From contig KZ538567.1 in NCBI GenBank assembly GCA_000934665.2, forward strand, positions 1 to 61,084: a DNA stretch of 61,084 nucleotides, given 5' to 3'. The stretch comes from Catajapyx aquilonaris (lineage: Eukaryota). Numbering within the stretch: position 1 is the first letter of the stretch; each line of letters begins with the position of its first letter. Positions 139-55,249 of this stretch are shown here, in pieces. The translations under genes were made by a program, and so were the position numbers. The notes under the pieces are model-generated. The model searched no databases and was not told where the DNA came from. It saw only the letters and a program-made list of their open reading frames with translations.

Positions 139-3100
139 ATGGCCCCCGTGGACAGGGAGTTGATGATGGAGACAGTCTTTGACATCAAGCGTCTCCTGCT
201 GGAGGATGTGTTGCCCCGACTGGCCTCACTGGAACCGATCCCGATCCGAATGGAGATGCTGGAGAATGGTGTGGGCGCCCTTAAGGAGTGGGCCTGGTGT
301 GGGGGGTGCAGGGTGACGAGTGAAGAGGAGGAAGTGGGTGAGTTGAAGATGGACTTGCATTTTTATGGGGCCCGCCATTATGGTGCATATTTTGATAACC
401 TTTTCTTTCTAATGTGTTCTTGTAATATTATTTGCCATATGTCGATCGATGGTCATCATCATCACCACATGTAAATGCCTCTATGGGGATGACATGTAAA
501 TATGAGAGTGCTGAGAATGAAGGTGTGACTAGAATGTGCTGTATCCCATCAGTTGCAGACGACAATCCAAGCAGCATGCCTTCTGAAGACCTCACTCCAG
601 TCAATGCCCATGTTGACAGTGGAGATACATCAGTGCCTGTGGACTACAAAAATTTTGCATTGGAACAGTGCGAGACTGAGGAGATCACAGGGGAGAATGA
701 GGGCCGTCAATTCCGTGAGAGTTGGGTGAGGATGAAATTGCTTATTTATGTGGTCACCAGGTCAAATGAAATGGCGCTGTCAAAAGGGGGATAAAGGGGT
801 TTAACAGGCGTTGTAAGTTGATCATATTTTTTTTGTACAACTAGGACATGACAAGTAGGTTTCTATGCACAAATCATCGCAACATTTGTACAGATGTGCA
901 GTCTGTGCAGTCACATACCTGTATCATTATTGTAGCCTGCTAAATGTTGTATAATTAGTGGTGCACAGTGATGCAAGTTAAAAAGGAACAGCATGAATCC
1001 ACGATGTAGCCTAATCTGAAACATAATGTTTAGTTGCAAAGAAACATTTTAATCACGCACTTATCTCCTAAAGAGGTGCTGTTGTGAATTTTAATGTGGT
1101 TTTCAGTCAATTGACATGGGAAGAAGATTTCTCTTATCAATATTGGTAGTGAAGTAATTGCTGAAGCCCAGTGAACATTATTTACTTATCTGAGTGATGG
1201 TGTCATTGCAATAGCATGTGTTGATAAGTGTTATATATAATAACAACAGATAACATCATTTTTATTGTGAAGTCTTTGTCTAATGCTAATAGGAAATATT
1301 GTAAGTTAAATGGTAACATGTTATATTTCCCTCTAATGGAAGAATCAACACTGGGAATCTGAAGAAGACGGAGCATCCAGAAACACTGGTGAAATGCCTG
1401 TCCTCCTGAGTGAGATTCAGTCAGATTGCAATGCAGAAGCTGGCAGTGTAGCAAACACAGGTATGATTGTGATTCGGGCAGAGCGGGGCAGAGTTTATCA
1501 TTATTTGACTGACAACTTCCAGGGGGAACTGCTGCCTGTAGTACAGCAGATCACTTCATGTGGAGATGGCATATAAGTATGGCCAGCATTGCTGGGATAA
1601 CACATTGTATAAAATGTTCCGGCATGAAACATCTCTCTGCATACATGGCCTTGTTTTGTGTGTTAACTAGTTAACACACAAAACAAGGTCATGTTAATGT
1701 TATGACTTACGAGCAAGTCCAATGGCCGTAGGAGGAAGTGTGTTCAGTGATGAAATAGTAAAGCCCCGTTTTATACATGTGAGGGATTTGACCAGCGAAG
1801 CAGAGCGAAGTCATGGCCGAGTGACATAACAAATATTGTTTGAGTTGAAAGTAACAATCGATTTTCGCGTACAACAATTAACAGGTTATTAGGGTTACTC
1901 AGCTTTGTTATTGCCGGAGATGACATCGCATGATCAAATCGCTCATATGTAAACACACATTAATAGCCTGTTTCGTGGTTTATTTATAGTATTTCCTTTT
2001 CTTTATAATTTAAATATTTTAACATTTGAATGTTTTTGCAGGCCTAGAAGCTGCCTCCACATCTGGAGAGGTCGTTGAAGATTCTCCCAGATTCTCCACC
2101 CATGATGGTGGAAACTCGCATCAGGAAGCACAACACTACTGGAACATGCAAAATATTGACGTATGGGAAATTTTGTTATTTTTTGTTATTTGTTATTTTT
2201 TGTTATTTTTTAAAATGGATGCTGGAGGCAGCTGTGGCATGCTGTCCCTTCATATGAATAGTGGCCAGTTGTTGCATTGAAACATGTTCCGCAAATAATA
2301 TTGATAGCAGATAATAATTATGTGAGGGAATTTTTACAATGTGGGGCCTTAATACACCACTTATTATAGTGAATGATTGAGTGGAATTAGATCGCCCATA
2401 ACTTGGTTTTTGTATTTGGCAGTCTCCTGCACATGCAGACACAGAGGACAATTATATGCCCATGCCTGATTTGAGTCATTATGCAGATGAATGTATGCGA
2501 CCGTGTTGCTCAGGTGACAATGCTCCTGCTGTCATGAGTGTGAAGAGGAAAAATCGGAAAGGAGAAGTACGCATGTTGTAAATAACAAGATAAGCATGTT
2601 GCAATCATGATTGTACATTACGACCTATTATTTTACTGCCCTAGGGTGCTGCTTCAGAAGCTTCTAGTGGCTCTGAACCTGATGGGGGTGAATCCATGCC
2701 ATCCGCTGCAGCTGACCCATCAAGTGAACCATCTCCTGGGCCAAGCAGAAGGGTGAGTAGGAAGAAACAAGTGTTGGTAAGCAACATTATGGGAGAAAAG
2801 TGGAAAATTCTTGGTTGCAAATGTATCACTTGTAGCCGTGAAGGTTTAACCATTACAACCTGCTTTGTTGGATTGCCATATGTATATTTTTTTGTATCTC
2901 ATAAGTACAATTTGAATATAAGGCAACCAGAATTGACAGATGTTGTACTCATATCCTTGATGGGGGATTCTGGGGGTGGAGGGTAGTGTAATTGGGCCTT
3001 TGGAAGTAATTTTTTATCATGATATCTTAGGCCACACTATTATTTTACTGCCCTAGGGTGCTGGTTCAGAAGTCTCCAGTGGATCTGAACCTGATGCGGA

Positions 3101-5652
3101 TGAGCCCATGCCATCTACTCCAGCTGATCCATCCAGTGAGCCATCTCCTGGCCCAAGCAGAAGTGTGACCAGGAACAAAGGAGCGCCTGTGAGTGAAAAA
3201 AAGGAAATGTTTTCCATTTTCTGCAGTGAGGAAGACATTATTTGGCTACATTGCAAAACTTGCATTCGTTTTCAATCAATCAATCAATCATGTACATCAT
3301 GGCATCTTCCCGTTATGGGGTTGCCAGCGAAGGCCAGGTACATTCGCCTATGGTCATCTCATGCATGGAGGAAATTGCTTTGATCCTTTGTAATGTTTAG
3401 GGGCTCAGAGCAGGCTGAATATGGGATTGGTCACACTCTACTACACTCTGTGAAGCAGATAAACTGGCATAATTGTTCTCATAGCCCTGTCCGCCTGTGC
3501 TCGCACATTTTTCACCATAGCATTATTTTAGTGCAGTACCAGATGCAGTAAAGAAAATTTGAAAATGATCAAATTTATGGAAACCTAACCCGGTTATTGT
3601 GCCATGCCAGCCACCTTCGGTTATACTGGGTCGACTTCATTTTATACCGAAATGCCGCTTTAAGTTAAGTAATATGGCAATTGGATCAGGGGAACTGCAG
3701 TACATAATTATTGCTACAATAAGTGATTATCTGACATGTTATTTATATGAAATTACATCCGTCATTAAGAACTTAAAATACGTCACTAGTAGCAAAAGAT
3801 TCAGGGTGGATTTAGATGTTCTTTATCACTGATTCCACATGTTGCAGGCTCCTGTGCACAAGGACACAGATGACAGTGAGCAGTCCTTTTCTGATCCGAG
3901 TGATTCTGGTGATGAATATATTCCTCCACATAGCTCACATGACAATACCTGTGCTGCCTTGAAGAGGAAGAGGAAGAAGCGGAAAGAAGATGTATGTTTT
4001 TGCTCAATTTATTATTTAGGAGCCATAAAGGTTGCAATTGCCTTTAGGCGATAGGGGAGTTATTTCTGATTCTTAAGGCTGTTCTTGAATCACACATACG
4101 AGCAGAGGAGGGGGCGGAAGGTTACATCCATGGAATGTGGCATAACCAGATCTACCCATAAAACATTATTTATTTTATTTTATTTTATTTTATTTTATTT
4201 TATTTTATTTACCCCGTGATGCAACCCTAGGCCGCTTTAGGGGGGTGGCAGACCACCATACAGTTTTCTCTTGCGTTTACTTCAATCACCGGTGCAAGGA
4301 ATACTAGGAAATTGGGTAAGGGTAGGGGATTGGGGAGGCAACACATGTGCACGTGCATTGTCCAGTGGTGGGCCAGGTGCAGTCCCCCAGGAGGTCAGGT
4401 TGCCAAGACGCCTCCTTAGGCGCGGGTCACGACCCAATGACGCAAGCGAAAGGTTTGTTCCCGGGTGGGGATTTGAACCCGGGACCTTTCGCATAGCAAG
4501 CCGAGACGTTACCATCTCGGCCACCGTGCCTCCCCCCCCATAAAACATTATCAGTTGCATTCATAGTCAGCACGTAATGTGAACTAGATCACTCTGTACT
4601 AAAATCCTTAGGCAAATAGTGTTCAATGGTTAAACTCCAATAACTTTACAGTTGAAAGTTGGAAAATTTAATTGGAGATGCTGAAAGAGGAGAGCCCAAG
4701 TGAAATTATATGAATCCTACACCTGTCCATCATATGGCTGCTGTCTTGGAATTGGGAGTGAACCGCTGTTCAAAAATGAGCTGCAGATTTTGGTGGATCA
4801 GATAAGCTTAGAACTTGAAGTTTTTGTTTTGTTTTGCTTTGTTTGGTTTTTTTGGCTCAAGCTACCACTTGATTCAAGATTGCATTTGAGCTGTGTTGGT
4901 GTGAAGGTCAAGATTTCCATTTTGATTTTGCTTGCCATGATTGGATCAATGAACAACTCTAAGACCTTTTTGAATGTGTGTTTCATTTGTGCAGTAGTAA
5001 TGTTGAATTTCTTTTAAAGGATATCTGCAAAATGCAGTCAGATGAAATGAATACTTCGAGAACCACTGGAGCCTTTCATATGGATGGTGCAACTTCAGGT
5101 GATTTGTATCTGGGCTTGAAAAAGAATGTGACACCAAGGGAAACGACAGCAAACAAGAAGAAGTCAGAATCAGTCCACACTCAAGTGAAGCAGAAGTTGA
5201 CTGGCCATGAAAGTCTCAGATCTGATGATGGATCTTACCCATGCAGTGATTGTGATAAGAGGTATATTACAAAGTGGGGGTTACAAAGGCATTGCAAGGA
5301 TGTCCATCTTGGTGTTAAGCCTTACTCATGTGACATGTGTGATAGGAAATTTTCTAGGGAGTATGAGATGGTTGTTCACAGGAGGACCCACACAGGAGAA
5401 AAACCTTACCAGTGTGAATGGTGCGAAAAATGTTTTTCTTCAAGTTCTCATTACCACCTTCATGTTCGGGTTCACAAAGGATTGAAACCATTTCACTGCA
5501 CCACTTGTGGCAGAAGATTTGGTCAGTCAGCACACTTACACCAGCACATGTTAATTCACTCAGGCGAGAAGCCTTTTGAATGCAGTACTTGTGGCAAAAG
5601 ATTTGTTCGTAGGGGGACACTTACACCGGCACATGTTAATTCACTCAGGTGA
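139..5652 (+). CDS. C2H2 zinc-finger protein, tandem copy 1 (multi-exon; finger array truncated by a frameshift)
   Basis: Phase-consistent GT-AG exons read by eye: 139-337, 553-725, 1343-1460, 2042-2160, 2423-2566, 2645-2776, 3057-3188, 3848-3991, 5020-5652. The last exon encodes CxxC-x12-H-x3/4-H fingers with TGEKPY/SGEKPF linkers. Four fingers are intact before a +1 G in the run at 5612-5616. Confidence 0.8.
1762..1960. mobile_element. PIF/Harbinger-like MITE in a copy 1 intron
   Basis: TAA duplicated at 1759-1761 and 1961-1963. Imperfect inverted ends (tacatgtgagggatttgacca / tgatcaaatcgctcatatgta). The paralogous site in copy 2 (~8881-8900, gatgaaagagTAAtagcctg) is empty. Confidence 0.75.
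3273..3660 (-). mobile_element. Probable retroposon (LINE/SINE) 3' fragment with a (TGAT)n tail
   Basis: (caat)n at 3273-3289 begins a block absent from the copy 3 intron. The 5' boundary is uncertain. Confidence 0.4.
4170..4536 (-). mobile_element. Full-length tRNA-derived SINE
   Basis: Minus-strand head GGCACGGTGGCCGAGATGGT...CTTGCTA...GGGTTCAAATCCC (Pol III A and B boxes, TGC anticodon-like loop). (AAAAT)n tail. Perfect 15-bp TSD cccataaaacattat at 4155-4169 and 4537-4551. Confidence 0.92.
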
Positions 5653-5911
5653 GAAACCCTTTGAATGTAGCACTTGTGGCAAAAGATTTAGTCGGTCAGC
5701 ACACTTACACCAGCACATGTTAATTCACTCTGGTGAGAAGCCTTTTGAATGTAACACTTGTGGCAAAAGATTTGTTCGTAGAGGACACTTACACCAGCAT
5801 ATGGTAATTCACTCAGGTTAGAAGCCTTTTGAATGTAGCACTTGTGGGAAACAGTTCATCCAAGAAGTAAGAATGCAGACACATGTAAAATCAATGCATA
5901 CAGGTGTGTAG
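5612..5911 (+). pseudogene. Out-of-frame remainder of the copy 1 finger array (rest of finger 5 plus fingers 6-8)
   Basis: cgtagggggacactta versus cgtagaggacactta in the later finger shows a 1-nt insertion. The GEKP linker carries GAG>TAG at 5819-5821. The last finger CSTCGKQFIQEVRMQTHVKSMH ends at TAG 5909-5911. Confidence 0.8.
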
Positions 5912-6799
5912 GATAAAAAGGACAATATTATTTTTTTTCGCCCAACCCCTGAGGAAATTATTGCATGATTAGTAGCATATCCGATCATTAACAACAAGTA
6001 AGATTCACAATCACTGAAATTTGGAGCAGCAGTACTAATTTAATTCCCTGACCATTAAATGGTGCTCATGTGATTATGAGCAACCTTTGATTTTTTTAAA
6101 GGCAGGAAGTAACCACATCCAAACAATATTGCAAATTGTTTGGCACTGAAGTGTGCTATGATGGATATCCAAAATTGGGTCATATATGATCCTGGGTTCA
6201 CATTCAGAAATAATAAGTACCTTTGTATGCAAGTGTTTCCAATGCGAAGATGTACAAAAGTTTTAATATATACAATGAATGTCTGGAAGAAATCTGCTGG
6301 TATATTTTTACCAGCAATGTTTATATGTATAAATACATATACGTGTAATGCAGGAGTAGGGTACATATGCCAAGCAGGTACTAATGACCCTGTTTTTTGC
6401 TATATACTCATGATTAGAATATGTTGAAGAATTTGCGTGATTGTGCAATAATTGATAATATTGTCAAAAATATATTTAGATGTATAGTGAATGTAACAGT
6501 CTGGTCATTTCTTCATTTTGATGCTGTATTAGGAAATGTCACTGGTGACTTCACAAATTGTTTTAGACCTCCCATTTAACTCCATCCATATCTGGTTTAA
6601 AAAAAACTCGTATGTAATATCTCATAATTCTAATAAATAAACTATACTTATGAATTTTTGCATTTTTGGGCGGTAAAATAAGCAACTTATGAGTGGTGCT
6701 TGAAGATAAGCAGTCTCCGTAACGGTTATTTTCAGCAGTCATTTGAGGACATTGCATTTTGCCTTAAGCGTTAGTTGTTATATTAGTTCTTGATATAGC

Positions 6800-6860
6800 T
6801 GCTTTTCCTGTACGCGATTTTCTCCCCACCCTGAATCCAAAATGGCGTCTTTCTCGTTCT
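6800..6860 (+). promoter_or_regulatory. Probable promoter/TSS region of ZF copy 2 with YY1-like motif; paralogous site at ~11970-12005
   Basis: ccaaaatggcg at ~6837-6847 (ccaacatggc in copy 3), 110-160 bp upstream of the ATG, in sequence conserved between copies 2 and 3. Confidence 0.4.
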
Positions 6861-7000
6861 GAAAGTGACAGTCTGTTGAGAGGATTTTGTCCGTTTTTGA
6901 GACGTGGTTGTGGGTAGAACCGGGTTGGATCGAAGCACAGGGTCTCTCTCTTTAGAGTCAGGGTATAGTTGAAGAGGAGTCGATAGGGGAACAAGCCATC

Positions 7001-10000
7001 ATGGCCCCCGTGGACCTGGAATTGATGATGGAGAATATCTCGGCCATGAAGAGTCTCCTGGAGATGCTCGTGCCTCGACTAGACAAATTGGAACTGATCA
7101 TGCCCAGACTGGACACTCTGGAGGAAGGTGTGGGCGCCCTGAAGGAATGGGCCTGGTGTGGTGGGTGCAGAATAAGTGAAGAGGAGGAAGAGGGTGAGTT
7201 GAAGGGGGACCTGCATTTTTAGGGGTCTTGACACCCGAGATGGTGTGCTTGGAAGGAAAGTGTTCGCAACATGTTCTAACAATAAAGGTATAGGAAGAAA
7301 AAGCCAGTGGTAATTATGATGATGAGTTGAGTTGAAAAGTCTCCCCTGATCACCAGATTGCTGGGAGGATTTCTCATTTTGGATATGGGTTTGCTGTATA
7401 CCCACTATGTTCGCTTGGGTTTTTATGGTTTTGTTCCAATTTCCTTCAACTGTAGCATTCCCTGACCATATTGAGGCTAACAATAATAAAATATCTGGCC
7501 AACGAAAATCAAATAATCGACAAGTTTGAACGCATTTTGGTGCACGTTGATAACCTTTTCCATCCAATGGGTTCATGTAATATTATTTGCCATATATAGA
7601 TGACCATCATTGTCATCAGATGTAAATGCCTCTATGGGTGTGACATGTAAATATGAGAGTGCTGAGAATGAAGGTGTGACTAGAATGTGCTTTATCCCAT
7701 CAGTTGCAGACGACAATCCAAGCGGCATGCCTTCTGAAGACCTCACTCCAGTCAATGCCCATGTTGACAGTGGAGATACATCAGTGCCTGTGGACTACAC
7801 AAATTTTGAATTGGAACAGTGCGAGACTGAGGAGATCACAGGGGAGAATGAGGGCCCTGAATTCCTTGAGAGTTGGGTGAGGATGAAATTAGTGCCTATT
7901 TATGTGGTCAAGAGGTCAAATGAAATGGCCAGGACAAAAGGGGGTTACAGATGTTTGACAGGCGTTGTAAGTTGACCATATTTTTTTTGTACATCTAGGA
8001 CATGACAAGTAGGTTTCTATGCACAAATCATCGCAACATTTGTAAAGATGTGTAGTCTGTGCAGTCACATACCTGTATAGCCCTCTAAAAGTTGTATAAT
8101 TAGTGGTCCACAGTGATGCAAGTTAAAAAAGGAGGAGAATGAATTCATGATGTGTAGCCTAATGTGAAACATTCGGTTTAGTTGCGAAAAAACATTTTAA
8201 TCACGCAATTATCTCATAAAGAGTGCTGGTGTGATTTTAATTTGGTTTTCAGTCAAATTGACAAGGGAAGAAGATTTTCCTTATCAATTTTGGTAGTGAA
8301 GTTATTGCTGAATGAACATTATTCTTTATACTTACATCGGTGCATGTGTCGGTGTGACGGTGTCATTGCAATAGAACATGTTGATAAGTGTTATAATCAC
8401 AGATAACATCATTTTCATTGTGAAGTCTTTGTCTAATGCTAATATAAAGAAATTGTTAGTTAAATGGTAACATGTTATATTTCCCTGTAAGACTGGGTAT
8501 CTGAAGGAGACGGAGCATCCACAAACATTGGTGATATGCCTGTCCTCCTGAGTGAGATTCAGTCAGATTGCAATGCAGAAGCTGGCAGTGTGGCCAACAC
8601 AGGTATGATTGTGATTCGGGCAGAGCGGGGCAGAGTTTATCATAATTATTTGACTGACAACTTCCAGGGGGAACTGCGCTCTGCCTGTAGTACAGCAGAT
8701 AACTTCATGTAGAGATGGCATATAATTATGGCTAGCATTTTTGAGATAATGGGGTTTATACACAGTGTATGAAATGTTCCGGCATGAAAGCATCTCTCTG
8801 CATACATGGCCTTGTTTTGTTTGTTAGGTATGTTAGTGTTATGAACAATTCCAATGGTCGTAGGAGGCAGTAGGTTCAGTGATGAAAGAGTAATAGCCTG
8901 TTTCAGGGTTTATAGAATTTCCTTTTATTTATAATTTAAATATTTTAACATTTGAATATTTTTGCAGGCCGAGAAGCTGCCTCCTCATCTGGAGAGGTCC
9001 TTTCCGAAGATCCTCCCAGATTCTCCACCCTTGATGGTGGAAACTCGAATAAGGAAGCGGAACACTGGAACATGCAAAATGTTGAGGCATGGGAAATTTT
9101 GTTATTATTTTTAATGTATGCTATTATGCATGGTGGGGGCCTGTGGCATCCTTGTCCCTTCATATGAATATTGTAGTGGCCTGTTGTTGCATTGAAACAT
9201 GTTCCACAAATATTATTGGCAGCAGATGATAATATGTGAGGGAATTTTTACAATGTGGAGCCTTAATACACCACTTATAGTGAATGATTGAGTGGAATTA
9301 GATCGCCCATAACTTGGTTTTTGTATTTGGCAGGCTCCTGCACACGCAGACACAGAGGGCAGTTATATGTCCATGCCTGATTTGAGTCAGTATACAGATG
9401 AATGTATGCGGCCGGGTTGCTCAGGTGACAACCCCCCTGCTGTCATGAGTGTGAAGAGGAAAAAGCGGAAAGGAAAAGTACATATGTTATTGTAAATAAG
9501 AAGATTATGCATGTTACCTGATTGTACGTACATTACGACCTGTATTCAGAGTCAACACTTGGTGTGCGAACTGGACCACTCTAAAGCTTTTAATATACTT
9601 AAGAGTATATTACTGGTGCTGAGTCAGGCCATTGTAGTTCCTCTCATTCAGACCCATCTCCATGTGCACCAATTTATTGTACTGCTCTAGCGTGGGGCAC
9701 CATTGCCATAATTATATTAACCACATTGATTGCCTCAGAATATGTGCACATTCATTGGAATATACTTTGCCCTTTAACTATCAAAACTTGCTTTGTTGGA
9801 TTGCCATATGTTAAGTACAATCTGAATATAATGCAATCAGAATTGACAGATGTGGGACTCATTTTTTGGATGAGGGATTCTGCAGGCAGAAAGTGGTTGT
9901 GCCTTTGTCAGTAATTTTTTATCACGATATCTTAGGCCACACTATTATTTTACTGCCCTAGGGTGCTGCTTCAGAAGTCTCCAGGTGCTCTGAACCTGAT

Positions 10001-11148
10001 TGGGATGAATCCATGCCATCTGCTGCAGCTGACACATCAAGTGAACCATCTCCTGGCCCAAGCAGAAGGGTGACTAGGAAGAGACAAGTGTTGGTAAGCA
10101 ACATTATGGGAGAAGAGGGGAAAATTCTTGGTTGAAAGTGTATCACTTGGAGCAATGGAGGATTAAGTGGAATTAGACATTCCTTGCCTTTTCTCTGCAT
10201 TTTGCAGACTCCTATGTACGAAGACACAGAGGACAGTGACCAGTCCTAGCCTAATATTAGTGACTCTGGGGATGAATGTATTCCTCCATGTCTCTCAAAT
10301 AACAAAGCCAATGCTCTCCTGAATAGGAGGAGAACATTTTTATATTTATGGGAGTATTTATATTGATTTAAGATTGCCTTTGAGCTGTGTTGGTGTGAAG
10401 TAAGGTCCAGATTTCCATTGATTTTGCTTGCCATGATTGGGTCAATGAACAACATTAATACTAAGACTTTTTTTGATAGTGTTTTAAATTTGGGCAGCAG
10501 TAATATAATGTTCCATATTATTTAAAGGATACCTGCAAAATGCAGTCAGATGAAAGAAATACTTCGAGAACCACTGGAGACTTTCATAGGGATGGTGCAA
10601 CTTCAGGTGATCTGTTTGTGGGCTTGAAAAAGAAACCAAGGGGAAAAACAACAAACAAGAAGAAGTCAGGAACAGTCCACACTCAAGTGAAGCATAAGTT
10701 TACTAGTCAGGAACTCCGATCAGATGGTGGGCCTTACCCATGCAGTGATTGTGATAAGAGGTATACTACAAAGAAGGGGTTACGAAGGCATTGCAAGGAT
10801 GTCCATCTTGGTGTTAAGCCTTATTCATGTGACATGTGTGACAAGAAATTTGTTTGGAAGTCTCACATGGTTGTTCACAGGAGGAGTCACACAGGAGAAA
10901 GGCCGTTCCAGTGTGAATGGTGCGAAAAATGTTTTGATTCAAGTTCTCATTACCACCGCCATGTTCGGATTCACAAGGGATTGAAACCATTTCACTGCAC
11001 CACTTGTGGCAAAAGATTTGGTCGGTCAGGAACCTTACGCCAGCACATGTTAATTCACTCAGGTGAGAAGCCTTTTGCATGCAGCACTTGTGGGAAAAAT
11101 TTCAACCGGAAAGCTCACATGCAACGCAATATGAAATTAGTGCATTAG
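7001..11148 (+). CDS. C2H2 zinc-finger protein, tandem copy 2 (possibly pseudogenising)
   Basis: Paralogous exons 7001-7193, 7704-7876, ~8492-8602, 8968-9086, 9334-9477, 9962-10093, 10528-11148. Four intact fingers plus a last finger lacking its first His. Lesions: shortened exon 3 acceptor region, GC donor at 9087, and an in-frame TAG (10247-10249) in a skippable exon starting at 10208. Confidence 0.7.
7225..7545 (-). mobile_element. Possible decayed non-LTR retrotransposon APE-endonuclease fragment in intron 1 of copy 2
   Basis: Block absent from copies 1 and 3. Minus-strand peptides NIVGIQQTH (cf. DIxxLQETH) and LVIRGDF (cf. GDFN) occur in different frames. Confidence 0.35.
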
Positions 11149-12109
11149 ACGAGGCATCAAGTTGTATATGAAGAGTAAAAAATCCCATGACAACTGCAAA
11201 TTCTGTGAAAATTCTTGTAATATTCATCACATATCTGGAAGTTTCATTATTCACCAAATTTTTAACCAGCAGCACGTTTCAATACCATCAGGACTGATCG
11301 TAATTGGAGGGAAATATGGACACCCCATTCGCAGAGTTGTTTCCTTGGTTGTTGCCTCCTCTGTTGCTACCTTGCTATGCAGGTTATATGAAAATGTTGA
11401 AACGTTTGTTGAAAATGAGCATGCCAATGTAACAGTTCACTTGCAACTGTACCTGCTGAGAAAGTACATCATTATTGCACCTCATGACATTTGGTTGGTG
11501 GCTGTTCAATTCATGTTGTTTTAACAAGTGTAGAATCTCTTTTATTCCACAGCACAACCCAACAATAATTTTTGTCATACCATAGAAAATGTATTGTGGA
11601 ATAAATAAAGCTTTCAAAGTCACACTGACTTTGAGTTTCACTCTTTATTTGTTTACCCTGTTTAGATCAAAACAATCATAATAATTTTGCAAATATGAAT
11701 TTTTGTGGTAGGCCTATTCTTGATTTTTTTTTAAATGCAGCACAGCAAAAATATTACTAAGCTAAGAATAAAGGTCAATGATTTTCATACCCTTTGTTTG
11801 CCATGGTTGGATTAAAAACACCCAACAAATATGTCACATGCCATTAGTTTCAATAACGGTTTATTTTTAAGCTGTTATCCCACCCCATTAGGAAATCGCC
11901 ACTTCCATAAAGCGCTATCTGTTGTATTAGTTCTTAATAGCCGCTTTTCATTGGCCCTAACAGCTACGGGATTTTCTCCACATCCTGAATCCAACATGGC
12001 ATCAGTTGCGAGGATTTTCATTTCTTTGAGACGTTTGTAGTTGTCCTGGTTGTGGGTGGAACAGAGTCACAAGTCGTCAAGTGTCGGGGAGTTGCAGAGA
12101 GGAGCCACC

Positions 12110-15100
12110 ATGGCCCCCGTGGACCTGGAGCTGATGATGGAGACAATCGTGGCCACGAAACGTCTCCTGGAGCTTATGTGGCCTCGACTGGACACACTGG
12201 AACTGATCCTTCCTCGACTGGACACACTGGAGGATGGTGTGGGCGCCCTGAAGGAATGGGCCTGGTGTGGTGGGTGCAGAGTGAGTGAAGTGGAGGAAGG
12301 GGGTGAGTTGAAGGGGGACTTGCATTTTTTTAATTAAAAGGGGGTGACATATAAATGAGAGCTGAGAGTCATTGGAATGTGCTTTCCCTCTTCAGTTGCA
12401 GATGACATTCCAGGCAACTTACCTCCTGAAGCCCTCACTCCAGTCAATGTCCATGTTGAAACCGGAGATTCTGTGCCTGTGGACAACATAAAAGCTGAAA
12501 TGGATCAGTGCAAGACAGAGGAGGTAACGGTGGAGGATGAAGGACCACAAGGAATTGACGGTTGGGTGAGGATGAAATTGCTCATTCACTGGGTCTGGGG
12601 GGCCAAATCAAATAGATAGGTCAAAATTGTAAGAGACTATGACAGTGATGGTGTAAATTGGCCATATATTTGGCCTATTATAGAGGAATTTTTTAATGAG
12701 AGCACGTGACTCTTGGGCATCTCCATTGTTCTGACGACAAAGTTGCTATTAAAATTTACACCATAACTTCTTTATGAAATAATTGTGTGATCATGGTGTT
12801 CCTTTGCAATGATTGTGCCTAATATTAGTTTACACTATGGACCTGTAATGTATGGTTATATGGGTAATGTGAATGCACATTTTAACAAATTTTGTGATAC
12901 TTGGTGCATAGCCATACTATAATGAGAGCAACTGAGTGCACACCACAGTTCAAGCAGCTTGAATGGTTGCCATCATCAATGATTGTTGGTATGCTCTCTG
13001 TATTGGGTGAACCGGTAAAAAAAAAACACTGCACTTGTTTCCTGTGATGCGCTTGGAAGGGAACAAGGCTCTGAAAGAAACCTCAAAAGCTATAGGTGTA
13101 TGTAACTCTATTAATATGATTTTCAGTCAAGCTGAAGAGGACAGTTAAATGTTCCGTATCAATATACGGTAGGTAGTGAAATATTATTGTTGATGTGAAA
13201 TGAAAATTGTGTCCAAAATTAATTTATTTCACTGCAATAAAACATGTTGATCAGCATTGATAAAATTTATTCGTTCTCTAAAAGGGCTGTACAACTTTTG
13301 TGATTTGGTTACATTGTTCTTATGATGATACATCTGTGGGAGGTAGAGTATAAGTGTTTTGTAGATGGGATATACCGATCATTCCATGTCCATAGAAGTC
13401 ATGCTAATCCATGTATGGGAAGTCTCTCCAAGGAGCTTATGCTCTCTGGACAGACTAAAATCAATCAAATCAATCAATCAATCAAAGTTGATGAATGTTA
13501 CAACAGATAACAAATTTTTCATTGTGAACTGCTTGTCTAATGAGTAATGATCATATGAAAATTTGTTAGTACAATGGTAACGTGTCATCTCCTATGATGG
13601 TAGGATCCAGACTTGGAAGCAGGAGAAGATGGTCCATTGAAAAACATCAGTGAAATTGCTGCCTTCTCCGTTGAGATTCAGTCACATTCAGATGCAGAAG
13701 TTGCCAGTTTGGGAAACACAGGTATAATTTTGATTTGCACAGGATATTTTCATTATCTGTCTACCAAACTTCCGAGTTAACTGCTGCAGTGCACTGTAGA
13801 TTATATAGATGTAAACAATTTAGTCAAGAATAAATAGACCTTTCAACATTTCTTAATATCCAAGTGAAGGTTCTTGGGAGTACAGGGTTTTAGATATCTC
13901 TTATTATTTATAATTTAAACATTTTAAGAAGTATAGCATATTTCCATTCCATCACATTTCTGCAGGTGGAGAAGCAGCCTCCACATCTGGAGATGTCTTT
14001 TTGGAAGATTCGCCTGGACTCTCCACACTTAATGAGGGGGAGACACAGCAGGAAGCAGAACACTGGAACAGGCAAAATATTGAGGTAGGGTAAATTTTAT
14101 CATAATTTGGAAAGGAAACTATCAAGTATGATAAGAGGAGCTCTGGTATTGGTGTCCCTTCATATGGATATTGCAATGATGCCCTTGGAGCTGTTGAACA
14201 TTGCATGCTGGACACTCGGCGATGGACAACACAGGAGCTTGATTTCCAGTGTGGGACAAGTCAGAGCACTATGCTTAGGACTCTGAAAGACTGAAAGGTC
14301 TCACGAAGTTGGCATCCTCACTGGTTCCTTGCCATCTCTTAGAGGTGCAAAAGTGCCGCCATTTTGCCCTCGCTTGGAACTCTTTATCATGATATCATAG
14401 GCCACACTATTATTTTACTGCCCTAGGGTGCCGCTTCAGAAGTCTCCAGTGGCTCTGATCCTGATGGGGATGAATCCATGCCATCCGCTGCAGCTGACCC
14501 ATCAAGTGAACCATCTTCTGGCCCAAGCGGAAGTGTCACCAGGAACAAAAGGGCATCTGCAAATAAAGTTAAGGTGAAAAGAAAGAAATGTTTACCATTT
14601 TCAACAGTGAGAAAGACATTCTTTGGCTACATTGCAAAAGTTACATATTATGTGACTTTTGCAATGTAGCCAAAGATATTAAAATAATAGTGATCTATTA
14701 TATTCTACCAGTAATTTACAACAGATAATACATATTGATAGATAGCATTCCCAAGCTTGTGTGCCATTTCCAAAACATATAAACATATGCTCTGTTCGTC
14801 CCAGCCATTAAAGAATTTGATTGATTGTAGAATGTGAAAGCAGCTATGTCAGAGTAAGGCATATTATTCATAAGAGTGTGACAGGAAGTCACATAATTGG
14901 ATCAGGGGAACTGCAGTACATAATTATTGCTACAATAAGTAATTATCTGGCATGTTATTTACACATAATTACATCAGTCATTAAGAACGTAAAATACCTC
15001 ACTAGTAGCAAAGAATTGGGTGGATTTAGATGCTCATTATCACTGATTTTTCATGTTGCAGGTTCCTGTTTATGAGGACAAAGAGTACAGTGAGCAGTCC

Positions 15101-16410
15101 TTGTCTGATTTGAGTGACTCTGGGGATGAGTATATTCCTCCACATAGCTCACATGACAAGACCTGTGCTGCCTTGAAGAGGAAGAGGAAGAAGCGGAAAG
15201 TAAAGGTATGTTGTGCTGAATTATTTAGGAGCCATAAATTGCTGCAATTGCCTCTAGGGGATGGAAATTTCTCACTCCTAAGGCTGTTCATGATTCACCC
15301 AAGATCGGCAAATCATATGAGCGTGATTAGAGTATACTTTTTCATGTTTACTGCTTTTGTCCCCAACGTCTGTCACAGGGACTGAAACCACCCATAACTC
15401 ATTTTCGCCAAAAGTGGACTTACCCTTTTCCCCCTCCCTCCTCCTACCCTCAGACTGCCCCTTTCCCCATTAAAAAACCTATCCTATAGCAAACCCATCT
15501 TTTATACCTTTCATCAAAAAACCGCCAGACCACCAGCCCTGGCTGAAGGTCTAGATCAGTGGTTCCCAACCTATTTTGGGTCGCGACCCCCTTTTATAGT
15601 AGCCCCCCCTGAATATGTATTTAATTTGTGCAATAGTAGGCTAATGTTGAATATTATTTAAAGGATATCTGCAAAATGCAGTCAGATGAAACAAATACTT
15701 CGACAACCACTGGAGACTTTCATAGGGATGGTGGATCTTCAGATGATTTGTGTGTGGGCTTGAAACAGAAACCAATAAGGGAAAAAACAGCAAACAAGAA
15801 GAAGTCAGGATCAGTCCACACTCAAGTGAAGAAGAAGTTGACTGGCCATGAAAGACCCAGATCTGATGGTGGGCCTTACCCATGCAGTGATTGTGATAAG
15901 AGGTATACTACAAAGAAGGGGTTACAAATGCATAACAAGTATGCCCATCTTGGTGTGATGCCTTACTCATGTGACATGTGTGACAAGAAATTTCCTTGGA
16001 AGTCTCACATGGATATCCACAGGAGGACCCACAGAGGAGAAAAACCTTATCAGTGTGAATATTGCGAAAAATGTTTTTCTTCAAGTTCTCATTACCACTG
16101 TCATGTTCGGATTCACAAGGGATTGAAACCATTTCTTTGCACCGTTTGGGGCAAAAGATTTGGTCAGTCAGGAACCTTACACCGTCACATGTTAATTCAC
16201 TCAGGTGAGAAGCCTTTTGAATGTAGCACTTGTGGGAAAAGATTTAGTGGGTCAGGAGACTTACGCCGGCACATGTTAATTCACTCAGGTGAGAAGCCTT
16301 TTGAATGTAGCACTTGTGGGAAAAGATTTGTTCAGTCAGGACAATTATGCCGGCACATGTTAATTCACTCAGGTGAGAAGCCTGTGGGAAACAGTTCAAC
16401 CCAAAAATAA
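12110..16410 (+). CDS. C2H2 zinc-finger protein, tandem copy 3
   Basis: gccaccATGg start. Exons 12110-12302, 12396-12565, 13604-13721, 13966-14084, 14427-~14570 (donor uncertain), 15062-15205, 15664-16410. Six finger units; finger 4 has C>W (CTVW) and the terminal finger is destroyed by a deletion after GEKP. Confidence 0.8.
13252..13486 (+). mobile_element. 5'-truncated LINE 3' end with (AATC)n tail
   Basis: gttgat duplicated at 13246-13251 and 13487-13492. (aatc)n tail at 13459-13485. The site is empty in copies 1 and 2 (tgttgataagtgttata). Confidence 0.7.
15557..15610. mobile_element. hAT (Charlie-like) transposon terminus, fragment
   Basis: CAGTGGTTCCCAACCT terminus immediately preceded by gtctagat (NTCTAGAN target preference). 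No matching second end seen. Confidence 0.55.
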
Positions 16411-16869
16411 GCATTCAGACACACATGTAAAATTAAAGCATTAAGGTGTGTAGGATAAAAAGGACAATATTATTTTTCTTCACCCCTTCCCTTGAGGAAA
16501 TGATTGCATGATTATAGTAGCATATCAGATCATTAACAGCAAGCAAGATTTAGAGTCACTGAATTTTGTAGCAGCAGTACGAATTTAGTTCCCTGACAAT
16601 TAATAGTTGCTCAGGTGATTGTGAGCAACCTTTGATTATTTTGATGGCAGGAAGTCACCACATCCGAACAATATTTCAAATTGTTCGGCACTGAAATGAG
16701 CTCTGGATGTCCAAAATTGGGTCATATACTGTATATGATCCTGGCTTCACATTCAGATACAAGTGCCTGTGTATGCAAGTATTTCCAATGCAAAGTTGTG
16801 AGAAAGTTTATACAGGGAATGTCTGGAACAAATCAGCTAGCATATTTTTACTGGAAATGTTATTATGTA

Positions 16870-17011
16870 CTATGGGGCTCAAATTGTTTTGGCCACTTAA
16901 TCCTGGTCTTGAAGCAACCATTCACACACACGCACCTGCTTAACGTGGGACATGTGGGAAGGGTTGCTTCAAGATCAGGATAAAGTGGCCAAAACAATTT
17001 GAGCCCCGTAG
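16870..17011. mobile_element. Palindromic TA-flanked MITE; second copy at ~55107-55238
   Basis: ctatggggctcaaattgttttggccactt ... aagtggccaaaacaatttgagccccgtag with TA on both sides. Absent from the paralogous copy 1 region (~6320-6345). Confidence 0.85.
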
Positions 17012-17885
17012 TACATATATGTATACAAAGCATGACGTACATATACCAAGCAGGTAATAACCCTATTTTTTTTTGTTATACTCCTGATTAGAATATGTTG
17101 AAAATTTTTCCATGATTGTCAAAAATATATTTAGATGTATCGTGAATGTAAAAGATTGCAGGTGATCATGAAGGATATCACATGATTAAATAAGATATGG
17201 AAAGATTACAATCACAGGTGAAAAATATTGACTCGTTTTTCAGAGTGTGTTACTCCTAACTTGATGCATCGTTCTGCAAATTGTAAATTCGGGCGAGACT
17301 AAAAATTGCCATGGCCTGGCAGTAGTTCAAGTACACTGCAACTCTCATTCATTAAACTAAGACTGTCATGACACACAGGCTTATGTGTTCGTATTGCAAG
17401 CTGTCAACTCTTGCCGTGCACAGTTTTCCATAAAACTACTTGAAATAAAATGTAACAAAAATAATATATGTGTTTTAAGTGAATATGTGGGTTTCAGATC
17501 TGCATATCATCCAGGCATGCACATAGACCTCTAATATCAGGAACATCATAAAATCGGTGGATTGTTTAAGTGAGTAATTAAGTCAGCTGCTGTTACATGA
17601 AGCAACATTGAACTAATTTCATGTAGCATAGGGAATGTAACTTATAATTATATTATTTATATTATATATATTATATTATATTATATATATTATATTACAT
17701 TATTAGGAGCAGCCCACTAGTGTTGGAAGGAAATATCTCAAGACTCGGACAATTCTCTCTGAAACTGTTGGAATAAAGAGGTGCACCTTCTGCAAAACTT
17801 CTGGATCTCCTTGAGAAAATAAACTATTTTTCATTTAAGTCACATTAACATTGTTAAAGGGGGAAAAAATGATGGGCATCATTGC

Positions 17886-20801
17886 TTATATCCTCAGAGT
17901 GTCTTCTAGGATGGCCCTGGAGTCTGTCCATCTCCTGATCCTGGCAAAGAAACTGTACTCGGACGAGGAATCGCTTGACCTCCTCCGCCTCTTCCTCTCT
18001 GGACACCAGTTCAAGGGCCACAGAGTCACGGCGAGGGCCTTCCACAGGGTGGTTGACACGTACGCAGGGAGTATTGGGATGTACACGCCGCTCCTCATCC
18101 AGAAGGAGATCCAGGTCAGCAAGGGGAGGTCGTAGGCCGTAATCCCTGGGCTCCTCCTTTTCATCTTGGCCTCCCTCCTCTTGGGTTTTTCCAGGATTGC
18201 GACGTCTACCTCGTGCAGCATCAGGTGCCACTTGGTCACCCCTCGGTCGTTGCGGTCACCTGGGGCTGCCATGTCCAGGACTGTCCCGAGAATGAGCGAA
18301 ACCAGTATCCCGTTGGACAGGATGGCCGTCAAGAAGATGTCCACATCCGGATTGCCGGTAAGGTTCATGTAGTGGGCCACGTTGCGAACTGCGCCGTTCT
18401 GGGCCATCATATCCTGCACCCACAGTGGGATGAGCTGCATCCAGGAAGATTTCTTATTACATCACAAGCACAATGGAGTCCAATAGCCTTTTATGGGTTA
18501 TTGGGAAATTAATTAGCTGAACCATACCTGTCAACACCACTTTTCAGCTCCAAAATATCAATCCTCTATAAATAATCGCGGGTTTAAAAGCCATTGCAGT
18601 ATACTTACCAGTCCCATGGAAGTGGTTAGCCCAATGATGATGACGTTCCTAGGCGAGGACATATTGACCTGCGAGCTGATGGAGATCCCTGTGGTTGCCA
18701 CGATCCCTAACCAGTTGAGGATTATCCCGGCGATTATGGGCCTGGGTATGGCCAGGAGGAACCCAGCGGTCTTCCCGAAGATGGCCAGACCGATCAGGAG
18801 CAACGATGTGAGGTACATGATGAGCCTGCTTCCGACCTTGGTGCAGTCCACCAACGAGACGTTTTCCTGCATGGTGGTGAACCCCATGGAGGACCCAGTC
18901 AAGGCAGACTGCAAGGTGGCAATTCCTTCGACCAAGAAGCCGCGGTTGAGGGCATGATGCGGCGGATGAGCAAGGCCCAGAAACTCAGACATGACACAGT
19001 GGTCGTACACCGAGTTCATGATTCCGACGACCAAACCGGACATCATGATGGCGGTCTCTCCTCCGCCGAAGACCGGCTTTGACCAGAACTTCTGCACGGG
19101 CATAATGTACCACGGAGCATTGGTCAAGCCTTTCCATGCATCAGTGGGCCAGTTCCACTTTAACACAGCGCACAAGCCCCAGAGCAGGACCACAGTCAGG
19201 GTCAGCTGAGGATTGAGCAGAACAGTACACCAGTTCAGCAACTTTTGTTCAGTAAGTCCCTCCTAATAATTTGGCAACACTATACCTGGCCCACCCACCA
19301 CTTTCACATTTTTCTCCTAAGAGGCTTTTTCTCTCCGTCGGATGTTTGTCCGACCTGATTGTGTTGCTATCTCTCACAGGACGGTGGCAGGGTTTTCTAG
19401 TACGACACGCACGTTGGTGATGAGTCACCACGGGGACAAAGCCCACCAGGGTGCTATAACCTCGCCTCCATTGACGTGGGTCCCACCCTCTCTGACAGCT
19501 ATGCCCTTCCATTGTTTAACCAGTAAAGTGAAAACAATGGTAACTGCTACCTAGGCGATGAGTCAACATGGACAATCTTGTTGACAGAGAGAATAAGCGG
19601 ATTAGGTATATACAAATAGATTAATGCATACCGAGAAGCACGAAAAGATCGGCAGACGAGTAGTGATGAGCCCGCTTCTGCCAGATCCGGTCATGGGCAC
19701 TACAAGCGTTCTCAGCAACTGTGCAAACAGCAGCAGGGTAAATGTGGACCTGTGAAAACAGCGTGTTTCATAATGTCAAAGGTGAGAATAAGATGAGTGC
19801 ATTCATTTACGCCATGGTGAGGCCCGCGCCCTCGGCAGCCATGTCGAGTACGACGTTGCTTGTGGCCATGGTGATGCCGAGGGTGAAGATGCAGGCCGAG
19901 AGAGTGATTGGGGATATCTTCTTGACTATCAAGACTCCGAGTCCAGTGAGTCCCAATAGCATCTGTACGACGGCTATGATCACCAGTGGACCTCGAATGG
20001 CGTCCCGACGTGACTGGTACGTCTGGTCACGTACCTCCTCTGAAGACTTCATGTAGTGCTCCTTGTCGTAACAGTGGTTTTTGTTCATCAGTAGCGCCGA
20101 GTATGTCACGTAGAGGTAAAACAGGCTGGGACCAGACACCACGGGCAGACGGACACCGAGTAGGTTCTGCAGGAAGGTGGTCTCTCCGGTGATCAGAAGG
20201 ATGGAGCTCAGGAGTCTCTGGCTCTCCGGTTGGGTCGCATCCAGACACAAGAGCCCCATCAGGATGTGGAATGCAGCAGTGGCCATCACCATGGCCACTA
20301 TGCAGTGCTGACAAGGATTGGAAGTCAATTTCAGCAAAATGTCAAATTGTCCTGCCAAAGGTCATATAGTACTACCTGCAGTGTGTAGATGATGCACAGG
20401 TACCATGATGGGGTCTCGTTGACGTGAAAGAAGAGGCTGGATGCCGGCACGAATGCGTTGGAGGCGATGCTGGGCACCGAGATCTTTGTGGTATCGGAGA
20501 TGCCATCGCTGGCCACGCTCGCGGTTCTGGTGACCAAGCGCTTGTGCTTCTTTGGCACTGGGGCTATCGATTCGGACTTCGATTCGGATATCGTTGTGAC
20601 AGTCGATGAATCAGTCGACTGCAAAATGTCGCAAATAACATCTCATTAAACATCTCTTCAACTATAATAAACCTACTATAGGTTCTTGGTTGAACATAAC
20701 TACTAAATTAAGATTAAGTCAAGTGCATTACTTACCGTATCGGATTCGATGCTGGCTCGACGACCTCGACTACTTCGACGGTCTCGACGTAGGTAGTCCA
20801 T
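17886..20801 (-). CDS. SLC23/NAT (NCS2) family nucleobase-ascorbate transporter, ~689 aa
   Basis: Six phase-consistent GT-AG exons: 20801-20736, 20618-20376, 20307-19811, 19749-19632, 19205-18609, 18434-17886. Motifs: TM1 QH (LQ|HC), GVRLPVVSGPS, NRGFLVEG, NAT signature ENVSLVDCTKVGSR, VNMSSPRN, VLDMAAPG..RG and YDLP. Many hydrophobic helices. Confidence 0.92.
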
Positions 20802-52071: not shown

Positions 52072-52266
52072 NNNNNNNNNNNNNNNNNNNNNNNNNNNNN
52101 NNNNNNNNNNNNNNNNNNNNNNNNNNNNNNNNNNNNNNNNNNNNNNNNNNNNNNNNNNNNNNNNNNNNNNNNNNNNNNNNNNNNNNNNNNNNNNNNNNNN
52201 NNNNNNNNNNNNNNNNNNNNNNNNNNNNNNNNNNNNNNNNNNNNNNNNNNNNNNNNNNNNNNNNNN
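52072..52266. other. Assembly gap (N run)
   Basis: Ns flanked by poly-G and poly-C tracts. Confidence 0.99.
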
Positions 52267-54070: not shown

Positions 54071-54119
54071 NNNNNNNNNNNNNNNNNNNNNNNNNNNNNN
54101 NNNNNNNNNNNNNNNNNNN
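54071..54119. other. Assembly gap (N run)
   Basis: Ns following a poly-G tract. Confidence 0.99.
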
Positions 54120-55249
54120 GCATTTTTGGAGCAAATATTTTCTAAACTAGTAGCTGACCCATTGCCAAATTTTAGCAACACTGCTAAAGTAGGCGATGAG
54201 GCGACATGGAGATATAAGCAGACAGATAGAATAAGGGATTTAGTAGTATCACTATTATAATTGAGCTGCATTTTTCCATTTTGTGCATTGTTGTTCATTA
54301 CATTAAATAATTTTTTCCGTACCTTTAAAGTCGAAAATTCAGACCGCAACAATGAGACCATTTTATTGGCTCCATCGGGCGATAAAGTACGTGATTTTTT
54401 CGTTGTTTTTTATAGGGGGGNGGGGGATCGTTGTTTCGCAATTTGGTTGCATCGATCTGCTATTGAGCGACTCAGGTTGTGGCAGGACATGGCCGTGTAT
54501 ACACGTTAAAAATAGTGGACTGTAAGTCCATTCGGTTCAACTAGGATTTATGAACAGATTCACTTAAAGTAAGACATTTCCATGGGTTTAAAGACATTTT
54601 TTACTAACAGGTAAGCAGTTACTTTTTGAGCTAGAATTGGTGTAAATATTGCTGGTAAAAGTTTTTGTGGTTGTTTAGAGCTGGTTTTAGTGACGTAAAA
54701 TCCGGTTCCTGCGAGATTGCGAAATCGGATCAGAGCGAAAATGTTGGCCCCCGGGTGTAATACAGGGTGATACTGTGGGCGTCCATGTTGTGAAGCAAAT
54801 TGAAGTGGACTGTTGCCAAGGAGCTGTCGAGTCGGGGGGTGCACCAATCAAAAAGGGGGCAGGGACGGAGACGACATCTCGCAGCTGTTAATTGGCTATT
54901 AACGCGACCTCGCTGGTACCATATCCCTCACGTAGATGGCGCTATGCCATTCTCAAGGGTTTAAAGGGTGTAGTGGTACTATAGGCAGAATGCACGTCTG
55001 GCACCTCCAACTTTTCAAATTTCAACAAAAGGTTGCCAGAAGGCATAAGTGACGTTTTTGAAATAATGTTACATTAAAAAAAAAATACATATCACCTACC
55101 GAAGTAGTATGTGGCTCAAATTGCTTTGACCACTTGGTCTTGCAGCAACCATTCACACACACACCCTCACCGTGGGGCCTGTGCGAAGGGTTGCGTCAAG
55201 ACCAGGATAAAGTGGCCAAAACAATTTGAGCCCCATAGCTCAATATCAA

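Follow-up and report, generated by a model that had tools for sequence, protein, structure and literature searches.

Do three neighboring zinc-finger genes of Catajapyx aquilonaris begin with a protein module that fits no described family, and, if so, what might that module do? We addressed this in a stretch of 61,084 nt (assembly GCA_000934665.2, contig KZ538567.1, positions 1-61,084, forward strand), the whole of which we call the window. Its first 16.4 kb hold three head-to-tail paralogues, all on the + strand, of one multi-exon gene whose last exon encodes tandem C2H2 zinc fingers and whose first exon encodes a short head (Table 1). Our best explanation, which we hold tentatively and at slightly less than even confidence, is that exon 1 encodes a real, undescribed N-terminal module of ~57 amino acids (aa) in a small, young, multi-exon C2H2 zinc-finger (ZNF) cluster shaped by tandem birth and death, and that this module probably self-associates.

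Results

Three tandem genes share a first coding exon

By blastn, the exons of the three units align with one another, and the introns of copies 1 and 2 also align at ~85% identity. The whole unit, from exon 1 through the finger exon, was duplicated together, and the likeness among copies therefore reflects descent as tandem paralogues rather than chance. Divergence along the gene is mosaic: copies 1 and 2 are ~85% identical through their introns yet only 77% identical in exon 1, whereas for copies 2 and 3 exon 1 reaches 87% identity and the introns cannot be aligned. This indicates that gene conversion has acted. A tblastn search of the whole 61-kb window with the three exon-1 peptides found exactly three loci, with cross-matches at E 1e-19 to 1e-30 and the next-best match at E 0.097, and no further copy of any other exon from these genes was found between 16.5 and 61 kb.

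The initial annotation had proposed a separate first exon of ~65 aa in all three copies, quoting the peptide of copy 3, and the three intervals do translate in this way. In every copy, frame 1 alone is open across exon 1 (the other two frames hold 1-7 stops), the ATG lies in a Kozak-type context, with no other in-frame ATG between it and an upstream stop, and the exon ends in the donor G/GTGAGT. Length differences between copies are all multiples of three, both in exon 1 (199 vs. 193 nt) and in exon 2 (173 vs. 170 nt). We assign exon 1 to the finger gene because of its co-duplication with the fingers, its phase, and the logic of its open reading frame (ORF), and it is probably the true first coding exon of that gene. 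The exon-1 peptides of the other two copies are 80% and 67% identical to that of copy 3. Across the exon-1 alignment, 40 of 66 columns are invariant, including an unbroken run from G43 to R57, which bears out the earlier statement that the end of the exon is the same in all three copies.

Table 1. Coordinates, within the window, of the zinc-finger gene copies and their parts
Feature	Position	Strand	Remarks
Copy 1, unit	139-5652	+	
Copy 2, unit	7001-11148	+	
Copy 3, unit	12110-16410	+	
Copy 1, exon 1	139-337	+	66 codons + 1 nt; phase-1 donor G/GTGAGT
Copy 2, exon 1	7001-7193	+	64 codons + 1 nt
Copy 3, exon 1	12110-12302	+	64 codons + 1 nt; start context GCCACCATGG
Copy 1, invariant motif (G43-R57)	268-312	+	From alignment
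Copy 2, invariant motif (G43-R57)	7127-7171	+	From alignment
Copy 3, invariant motif (G43-R57)	12236-12280	+	From alignment
Copy 3, two 30-nt (10-aa) PRLDTLE repeats	12182-12241	+	20-nt cores identical; one R-h-x-x-h-E each
Copy 1, linker exons (seven)	553-725, 1343-1460, 2042-2160, 2423-2566, 2645-2776, 3057-3188, 3848-3991	+	GT-AG, phase-consistent; span 553-3991
Copy 2, linker exons with lesions	7704-10330	+	
Copy 3, linker exons (five)	12396-12565, 13604-13721, 13966-14084, 14427-14573, 15062-15205	+	
Copy 1, terminal C2H2 exon	5020-5652	+	Four intact fingers, fifth cut by frameshift
Copy 2, terminal C2H2 exon	10528-11148	+	Five fingers, ORF intact
Copy 3, terminal C2H2 exon	15664-16410	+	Six fingers; finger 4 minus one Cys

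Anatomy and predicted structure of the head

From its N-terminus, the head consists of the segment MAPVDxELMME, a variable stretch, two 10-aa repeats, the invariant CxxC end, and an acidic tail. The repeats follow the pattern P-R-L-D-x-L-E-x-I-x, and each holds one R-h-x-x-h-E motif. The suggestion that RLxxLE fits the RhxxhE trimerization motif thus stood up, with two such motifs in each of the three copies. Two or more of them arise in 0.4-1.0% of 20000 shuffles, a frequency to be read with the non-independence of the copies in mind. The CxxC is the only one in exon 1, which has no other Cys.

AlphaFold2 agreed with the helical head that had been supposed, predicting helix both for the three-row alignment of the copies (a single long amphipathic helix at residues 6-52; mean predicted local distance difference test score [pLDDT] 81.3, predicted template modeling score 0.39) and for copy 1 alone (helices at 6-30 and 35-53, broken at EPIPI; pLDDT 69.9). 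The CxxC comes after the predicted helix, and the acidic sequence beyond it is non-helical. In copies 2 and 3, hydrophobic residues recur with a period of 3.33-3.5 residues (z ~3.1, a value reached by 1.6% of 5000 shuffles). A predicted complex of two exon-1 chains with zinc scored 0.07 against a mark of 0.32; run without controls or the three-row alignment, it speaks neither for nor against binding.

Selection on exon 1

Over the whole of exon 1, the ratio of non-synonymous to synonymous substitution rates (dN/dS) is 0.43-0.46 in all three pairs of copies, at dS of 0.29-0.60, and the other exons of these genes range from 0.3 to >1. Across the first 11 residues, the proportion of non-synonymous differences (pN) is 0.00-0.06, vs. 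a synonymous proportion (pS) of 0.25-0.32. The end motif is under purifying selection: between copy 1 and copies 2 and 3, it has accumulated four synonymous differences (10.2 sites) and no non-synonymous ones (34.8 sites; Fisher P ~0.003). Because of this contrast, constraint on the terminal motif is what exceeds shared descent. The initial annotation had named confinement to this locus with a dN/dS near 1 as the pattern that would speak against a functional module. The first part of that pattern holds so far, as the module is known at this locus only, and the second does so in part, with a ratio of 0.43-0.46 overall, about 1 in the middle third, and 0 in the end motif. On balance, this outcome neither refutes the module nor lends it strong backing. 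A confident match to a known domain, which the initial annotation had also listed as refuting, did not emerge from the searches described below.

Several observations weigh against our reading of exon 1 as a real, self-associating module. The selection signal in the motif amounts to one independent comparison, since copies 2 and 3 are nucleotide-identical over it, and gene conversion would fit both this identity and the homogenized repeats of copy 3. In the middle third of the exon, which forms the core of the predicted helix, pN is about equal to pS (0.36/0.33, 0.29/0.26, and 0.20/0.33), and the differences between copies 2 and 3 are not concentrated at third codon positions (10, 7, and 11 at positions 1, 2, and 3, respectively). 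There are only three known copies, each with a lesion, and copy 2 looks dead. As for structure, the alignment underlying the helix prediction has three rows only, copy 1 lacks significant heptad periodicity (z 0.73), and prolines lie within the predicted helix (two in copies 2 and 3; LP and EPIPI in copy 1). Moreover, a spacing of 10 residues, rather than 7 or 14, separates the RhxxhE motifs and prevents both from sharing one unbroken heptad register. Judged from the sequence, such spacing, together with the prolines, speaks against a canonical coiled coil of uninterrupted heptads.

Some of these observations would also be expected if exon 1 were a functionless leader of a recently duplicated, decaying cluster, with its conservation due to short divergence and gene conversion. 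The lack of any nucleotide difference between copies 2 and 3 in the 45-nt motif, the identical 20-nt repeat cores of copy 3, the relaxed middle of the exon, and the lesion in every copy all favor this explanation, as do the mosaic history of the copies and the lack of any relative in our database and metagenome searches. However, at the synonymous rate, ~11-14 non-synonymous differences would be expected in the motif between copy 1 and copies 2 and 3, vs. the zero that we observed. The ORF, start context, donor, and in-frame indels have also been kept in 3/3 copies at the dS given above, and the fingers diversify preferentially at contact residues, unlike plain decay. We therefore regard a functionless leader as somewhat unlikely.

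Search for relatives of the head

A search with hmmscan of the three exon-1 peptides against 24736 Pfam-A models, at E up to 10, returned no family at threshold, noting that HMMER's filters remove most matches above E ~0.1. The sole sub-threshold match was LRR_15, at 15.2 bits vs. a cut-off of 24. There was no profile match to the KRAB, SCAN, or BTB/POZ heads, to zf-AD (ZAD), from which the head also differs in its Cys count, or to the DUF3669 model. This agrees with the initial view that the head is not KRAB, SCAN, BTB, or ZAD, and on sequence grounds the head appears to fit no described family.

The same search bears on the invariant end. Its W-C-G-G-C could conceivably be a redox-active CxxC of the thioredoxin kind, as we take it to resemble the thioredoxin active-site motif. 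The resemblance is local only, a Trp directly before C-G-x-C; no thioredoxin-type family or fold matched the exon-1 peptides in Pfam, and the motif ends a lone predicted helix and leads into an acidic low-complexity tail, with no thioredoxin fold predicted. A redox role is accordingly extremely improbable.

Beyond Pfam, the exon-1 profile had its best match among PDB sequences at E 0.09 (DndE), which we took as chance. Against 1.84 billion protein representatives, it gave three matches at E ≤ 0.001 (1.7e-7, 2.5e-4, and 2.8e-4) and none at E ≤ 1e-10. We rejected these three as relatives; they cover profile positions 18-48 only, carry tandem repeats of PRLDxLE-like or LxxRLxxLE type, and have no end motif. 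One of them, a 596-aa transporter-like protein (P0004), carries around eleven tandem 10-aa PRLDNLENTK repeats at residues ~240-350, close to the PRLDTLE of the head. This likeness may be the convergence of a 30-nt minisatellite-type repeat, or chance.

Word-based searches among longer proteins yielded 6 candidates for exon 1 and 11 for the pre-finger part of the copy 3 finger exon, none scored. In the ESM Atlas, the best score for exon 1 was 0.84, below a meaningful level, and the finger exon retrieved only generic animal C2H2 clusters. One metagenome scan gave 86 pattern matches and no relatives of exon 1. The sole locus from a second scan (174 pattern matches) consisted of 24 residues around the selected pattern without fingers or another exon, and we set it aside as chance. 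The motif strings were absent from the full text of the papers searched. Because the best relative of a neighboring SLC23-type ORF (described below) is only 35% identical and the pre-finger linker retrieved none, this species and its near kin seem to be poorly represented in protein collections, and the blank searches are thus weak evidence that the module is truly restricted to this locus.

Comparison with DUF3669 and a possible transposon origin

The closest functional parallel may be DUF3669. In the part of the source at hand (bioRxiv 10.1101/2025.03.01.640934), it is described as an L1 ORF1p-derived coiled coil that lies at the N-terminus, carries two RhxxhE motifs, and trimerizes KRAB-ZNF proteins. 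As there described, DUF3669 resembles the head in being N-terminal and helical, with two R-h-x-x-h-E motifs, on tandem C2H2 proteins. Unlike DUF3669, the head has no sequence match to that family and no KRAB after it, and its motifs, each preceded by Pro, are 10 residues apart. DUF3669 is reported to run through about ten consecutive heptads, whereas the head has a predicted helix of ~47 residues that contains Pro and shows significant periodicity in two of three copies. The head also has an invariant CxxC end, a feature that the same part of the source does not describe for DUF3669. By analogy, DUF3669 may be the best model for how the head works.

This likeness raises the question of whether the head was captured from a trimerizing, retrotransposon ORF1p-type coiled coil, an origin that would be compatible with our best explanation. 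Two RhxxhE motifs in a helical N-terminal ZNF head are the feature set reported, in the material at hand, for DUF3669 and anamniote L1 ORF1p, and RhxxhE also appears in the portion of the L1 ORF1p literature that we consulted. However, Pfam gave no match to DUF3669 or to any transposon family, 1.84 billion representatives gave only three PRLDxLE-type repeat proteins, and the helix is short next to the ten heptads of DUF3669. The 10-residue spacing instead suggests that the motifs arose by local duplication of 30 nt, and we give a captured head little credence.

Linker and finger exons

Gene models were obtained by joining exons by coordinate, that is, by conceptual splicing. The copy 1 model has nine exons, with GT-AG at every junction and all in phase, and the copy 3 model has seven GT-AG exons forming a clean conceptual ORF of 545 aa. 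As the initial annotation had stated, all fingers of each copy lie in a single terminal exon. Its broader layout of head, linker, and finger exon needs qualification: the head can be joined in frame to the fingers, but five (copy 3) to seven (copy 1) small exons stand between them. These linker exons are acidic and Ser/Pro-rich with basic KRK runs, and nothing in Pfam matched them, KRAB, SCAN, and BTB-POZ included. They have been internally duplicated and shuffled at 2423-3991, 9334-10330, and 14427-15205. Within copy 1, exons 5 and 8 are alike, as are exons 6 and 7; the copy 2 gene contains a single hybrid exon of the 6/7 type, and copy 3 lacks equivalents of exons 5 and 6. This pattern points to unequal crossing-over inside the gene.

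The terminal exons of copies 1-3 matched Pfam zf-H2C2_2 (E 1.5e-27, 3.7e-29, and 3.3e-39) and zf-C2H2 (E 2.7e-20, 2.6e-18, and 3.4e-25), with consecutive fingers far above the Pfam cut-offs, as in tandem C2H2 proteins; pattern matching counted 4, 5, and 6 fingers. In copy 1, the fifth finger has changed in length by 1 nt, and the resulting frameshift leads to a stop at 5650-5652; three further fingers and a TAG are recognizable out of frame up to ~5900. In copy 2, use of the sole AG acceptor at exon 3 (8492) throws the reading frame off and brings in a stop at residue 142. The donor of exon 4 (after 9086) is GC, and an exon-8-like block (10208-10330) is interrupted by an in-frame TAG and no longer has a donor. 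The ORF of copy 2 survives only when three exons are skipped, and this copy is probably a pseudogene unless the damaged exons are indeed skipped. Copy 3 carries a Cys-to-Trp change in finger 4 and a deletion of its last finger.

Pairwise comparison of the fingers shows differences in 23 of 48 cells at base-contact positions, vs. 39 of 228 elsewhere (P 1.5e-5, with pairs that are not independent). Such divergence at contact residues is the usual signature of diversifying ZNF clusters, not of plain decay.

Sequence around the genes

Copies 2 and 3 have in common a conserved block (6766-6849 and 11910-12003; 72% identity) some 110-235 nt ahead of their ATGs, possibly a common promoter element; the copy 2 version includes CCTGAATCCAAAATGGCG, and that of copy 3 CCTGAATCCAACATGGCA. 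What precedes copy 1 is instead a CpG-rich stretch (1-90). Intron 8 of copy 1 includes, by eye, a transfer RNA (tRNA)-like stretch on the - strand (~4440-4540) with a GGTTCAAATCC box, beside an (ATTTT)7 microsatellite at 4172-4206. This stretch looks like the head of a tRNA-derived short interspersed nuclear element; it was not called by ARAGORN or Rfam, both of which were blank over the window.

Just downstream of the cluster, at 17857-20361 on the - strand, large ORFs mark a gene for a nucleobase-ascorbate/SLC23-type permease. They match Pfam Xan_ur_permease at E 5.9e-33 (18561-19262) and 4.8e-11 (19810-20361), and the gene sits in a GC-rich patch (0.52 vs. ~0.40). Copies of a ~145-bp element at 16867-17014 and 55104-55238 match each other in both orientations (84% and 77%), and the element is therefore palindromic and resembles a miniature inverted-repeat transposable element. 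Runs of N, either assembly gaps or masked bases, occur at 52072-52266, 54071-54119, and seven single positions, far from the finger cluster.

Discussion

A lineage-restricted head combined with a single finger exon in tandem clusters is a known architecture (KRAB, ZAD, FiNZ, and DUF3669). The genes described here share with the KRAB, SCAN, and BTB-POZ genes of vertebrates the succession of head exon(s), linker, and one finger exon, the arrangement in tandem clusters, and diversifying contact residues; unlike those genes, they have a head without a profile match to any of the three.

In ZAD, four Cys (two pairs) of the same chain coordinate zinc, whereas the head contains just one CxxC and does not match Pfam zf-AD. 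The two are alike, so far as ZAD is characterized in the material at hand, in being N-terminal, Cys-containing heads on fast-evolving tandem C2H2 genes, and the ZAD of arthropod ZNF proteins is reported there to homodimerize (PMC7913770).

The CxxC of Rad50 lies at the tip where two antiparallel helices meet, whereas in the head a helix is predicted on the N-terminal side of the CxxC only. The Rad50 zinc hook still offers a precedent for the initial annotation's idea of zinc shared between subunits, with one CxxC per chain adjoining a helix; in the portion of the source at hand, each chain contributes one CxxC beside a coiled-coil helix, and two chains share one zinc (PMC5093744).

FiNZ offers a different comparison. 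In the part of Wells et al. available to us, it is described as a 28-aa, Glu-rich, single-exon head of cyprinid fish, of unknown mechanism and without similarity to known domains, that directly precedes the finger exon in ~700 zebrafish genes (PMC10547256). By that description, which is the sole basis of the comparison, both heads are short, lineage-restricted, encoded on their own exon upstream of a single finger exon, and found in tandem clusters. Unlike FiNZ, the head here has ~57 aa, 5-7 linker exons between it and the fingers, and three known copies. This parallel bears on the possibility that the head acts by docking, as KRAB or FiNZ might, in which case the end motif and the kept N-terminus would recruit a cofactor as a short linear motif, the helix serving only as a spacer. 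The strictly kept parts are indeed the two ends, not the helix core, and the head is short, confined to a single exon, and followed by acidic residues, as FiNZ is described in the same part of that report (PMC10547256). However, Pfam gave no similarity to KRAB or another effector model, and no cofactor is known, and we consider such a docking head unlikely.

Returning to a self-associating module, we suggest by analogy with SCAN, ZAD, BTB, and DUF3669 that the helix would serve as a handle for self-association, which would let short arrays of 4-6 fingers bind DNA with higher avidity. The invariant CxxC end may act as a clamp between chains, through zinc or a disulfide, or as a docking motif. 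A clamp of this kind would follow the principle of the Rad50 hook, with one CxxC per chain. We infer oligomerization, any metal site, and a function as a nuclear transcription factor, whereas an expanding family, co-repressor recruitment, and transposon targeting, which the initial annotation had raised, are conjecture. A more ambitious version would make the head an undescribed ZNF oligomerization domain, combining a paired-RhxxhE coiled coil with an inter-chain Cys4 zinc or disulfide clamp, that defines a lineage-specific family well beyond this locus and possibly stems from a retrotransposon ORF1-type coiled coil. We find this version decidedly doubtful.

Outside vertebrates and insects, dozens of ZNF families are described as uncharacterized across animals in the part of Wells et al. 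at hand (PMC10547256). Fast-evolving ZNF clusters are defined by their N-terminal heads, such as KRAB, SCAN, ZAD, FiNZ, and DUF3669, which set what the bound finger array does. With three copies only, the present weight of the C. aquilonaris head is modest. Still, a new head without detectable relatives would be one more independent solution, pairing a coiled-coil-like helix with a single invariant CxxC, and thus a compact candidate for an oligomerization or metal-clamp tag.

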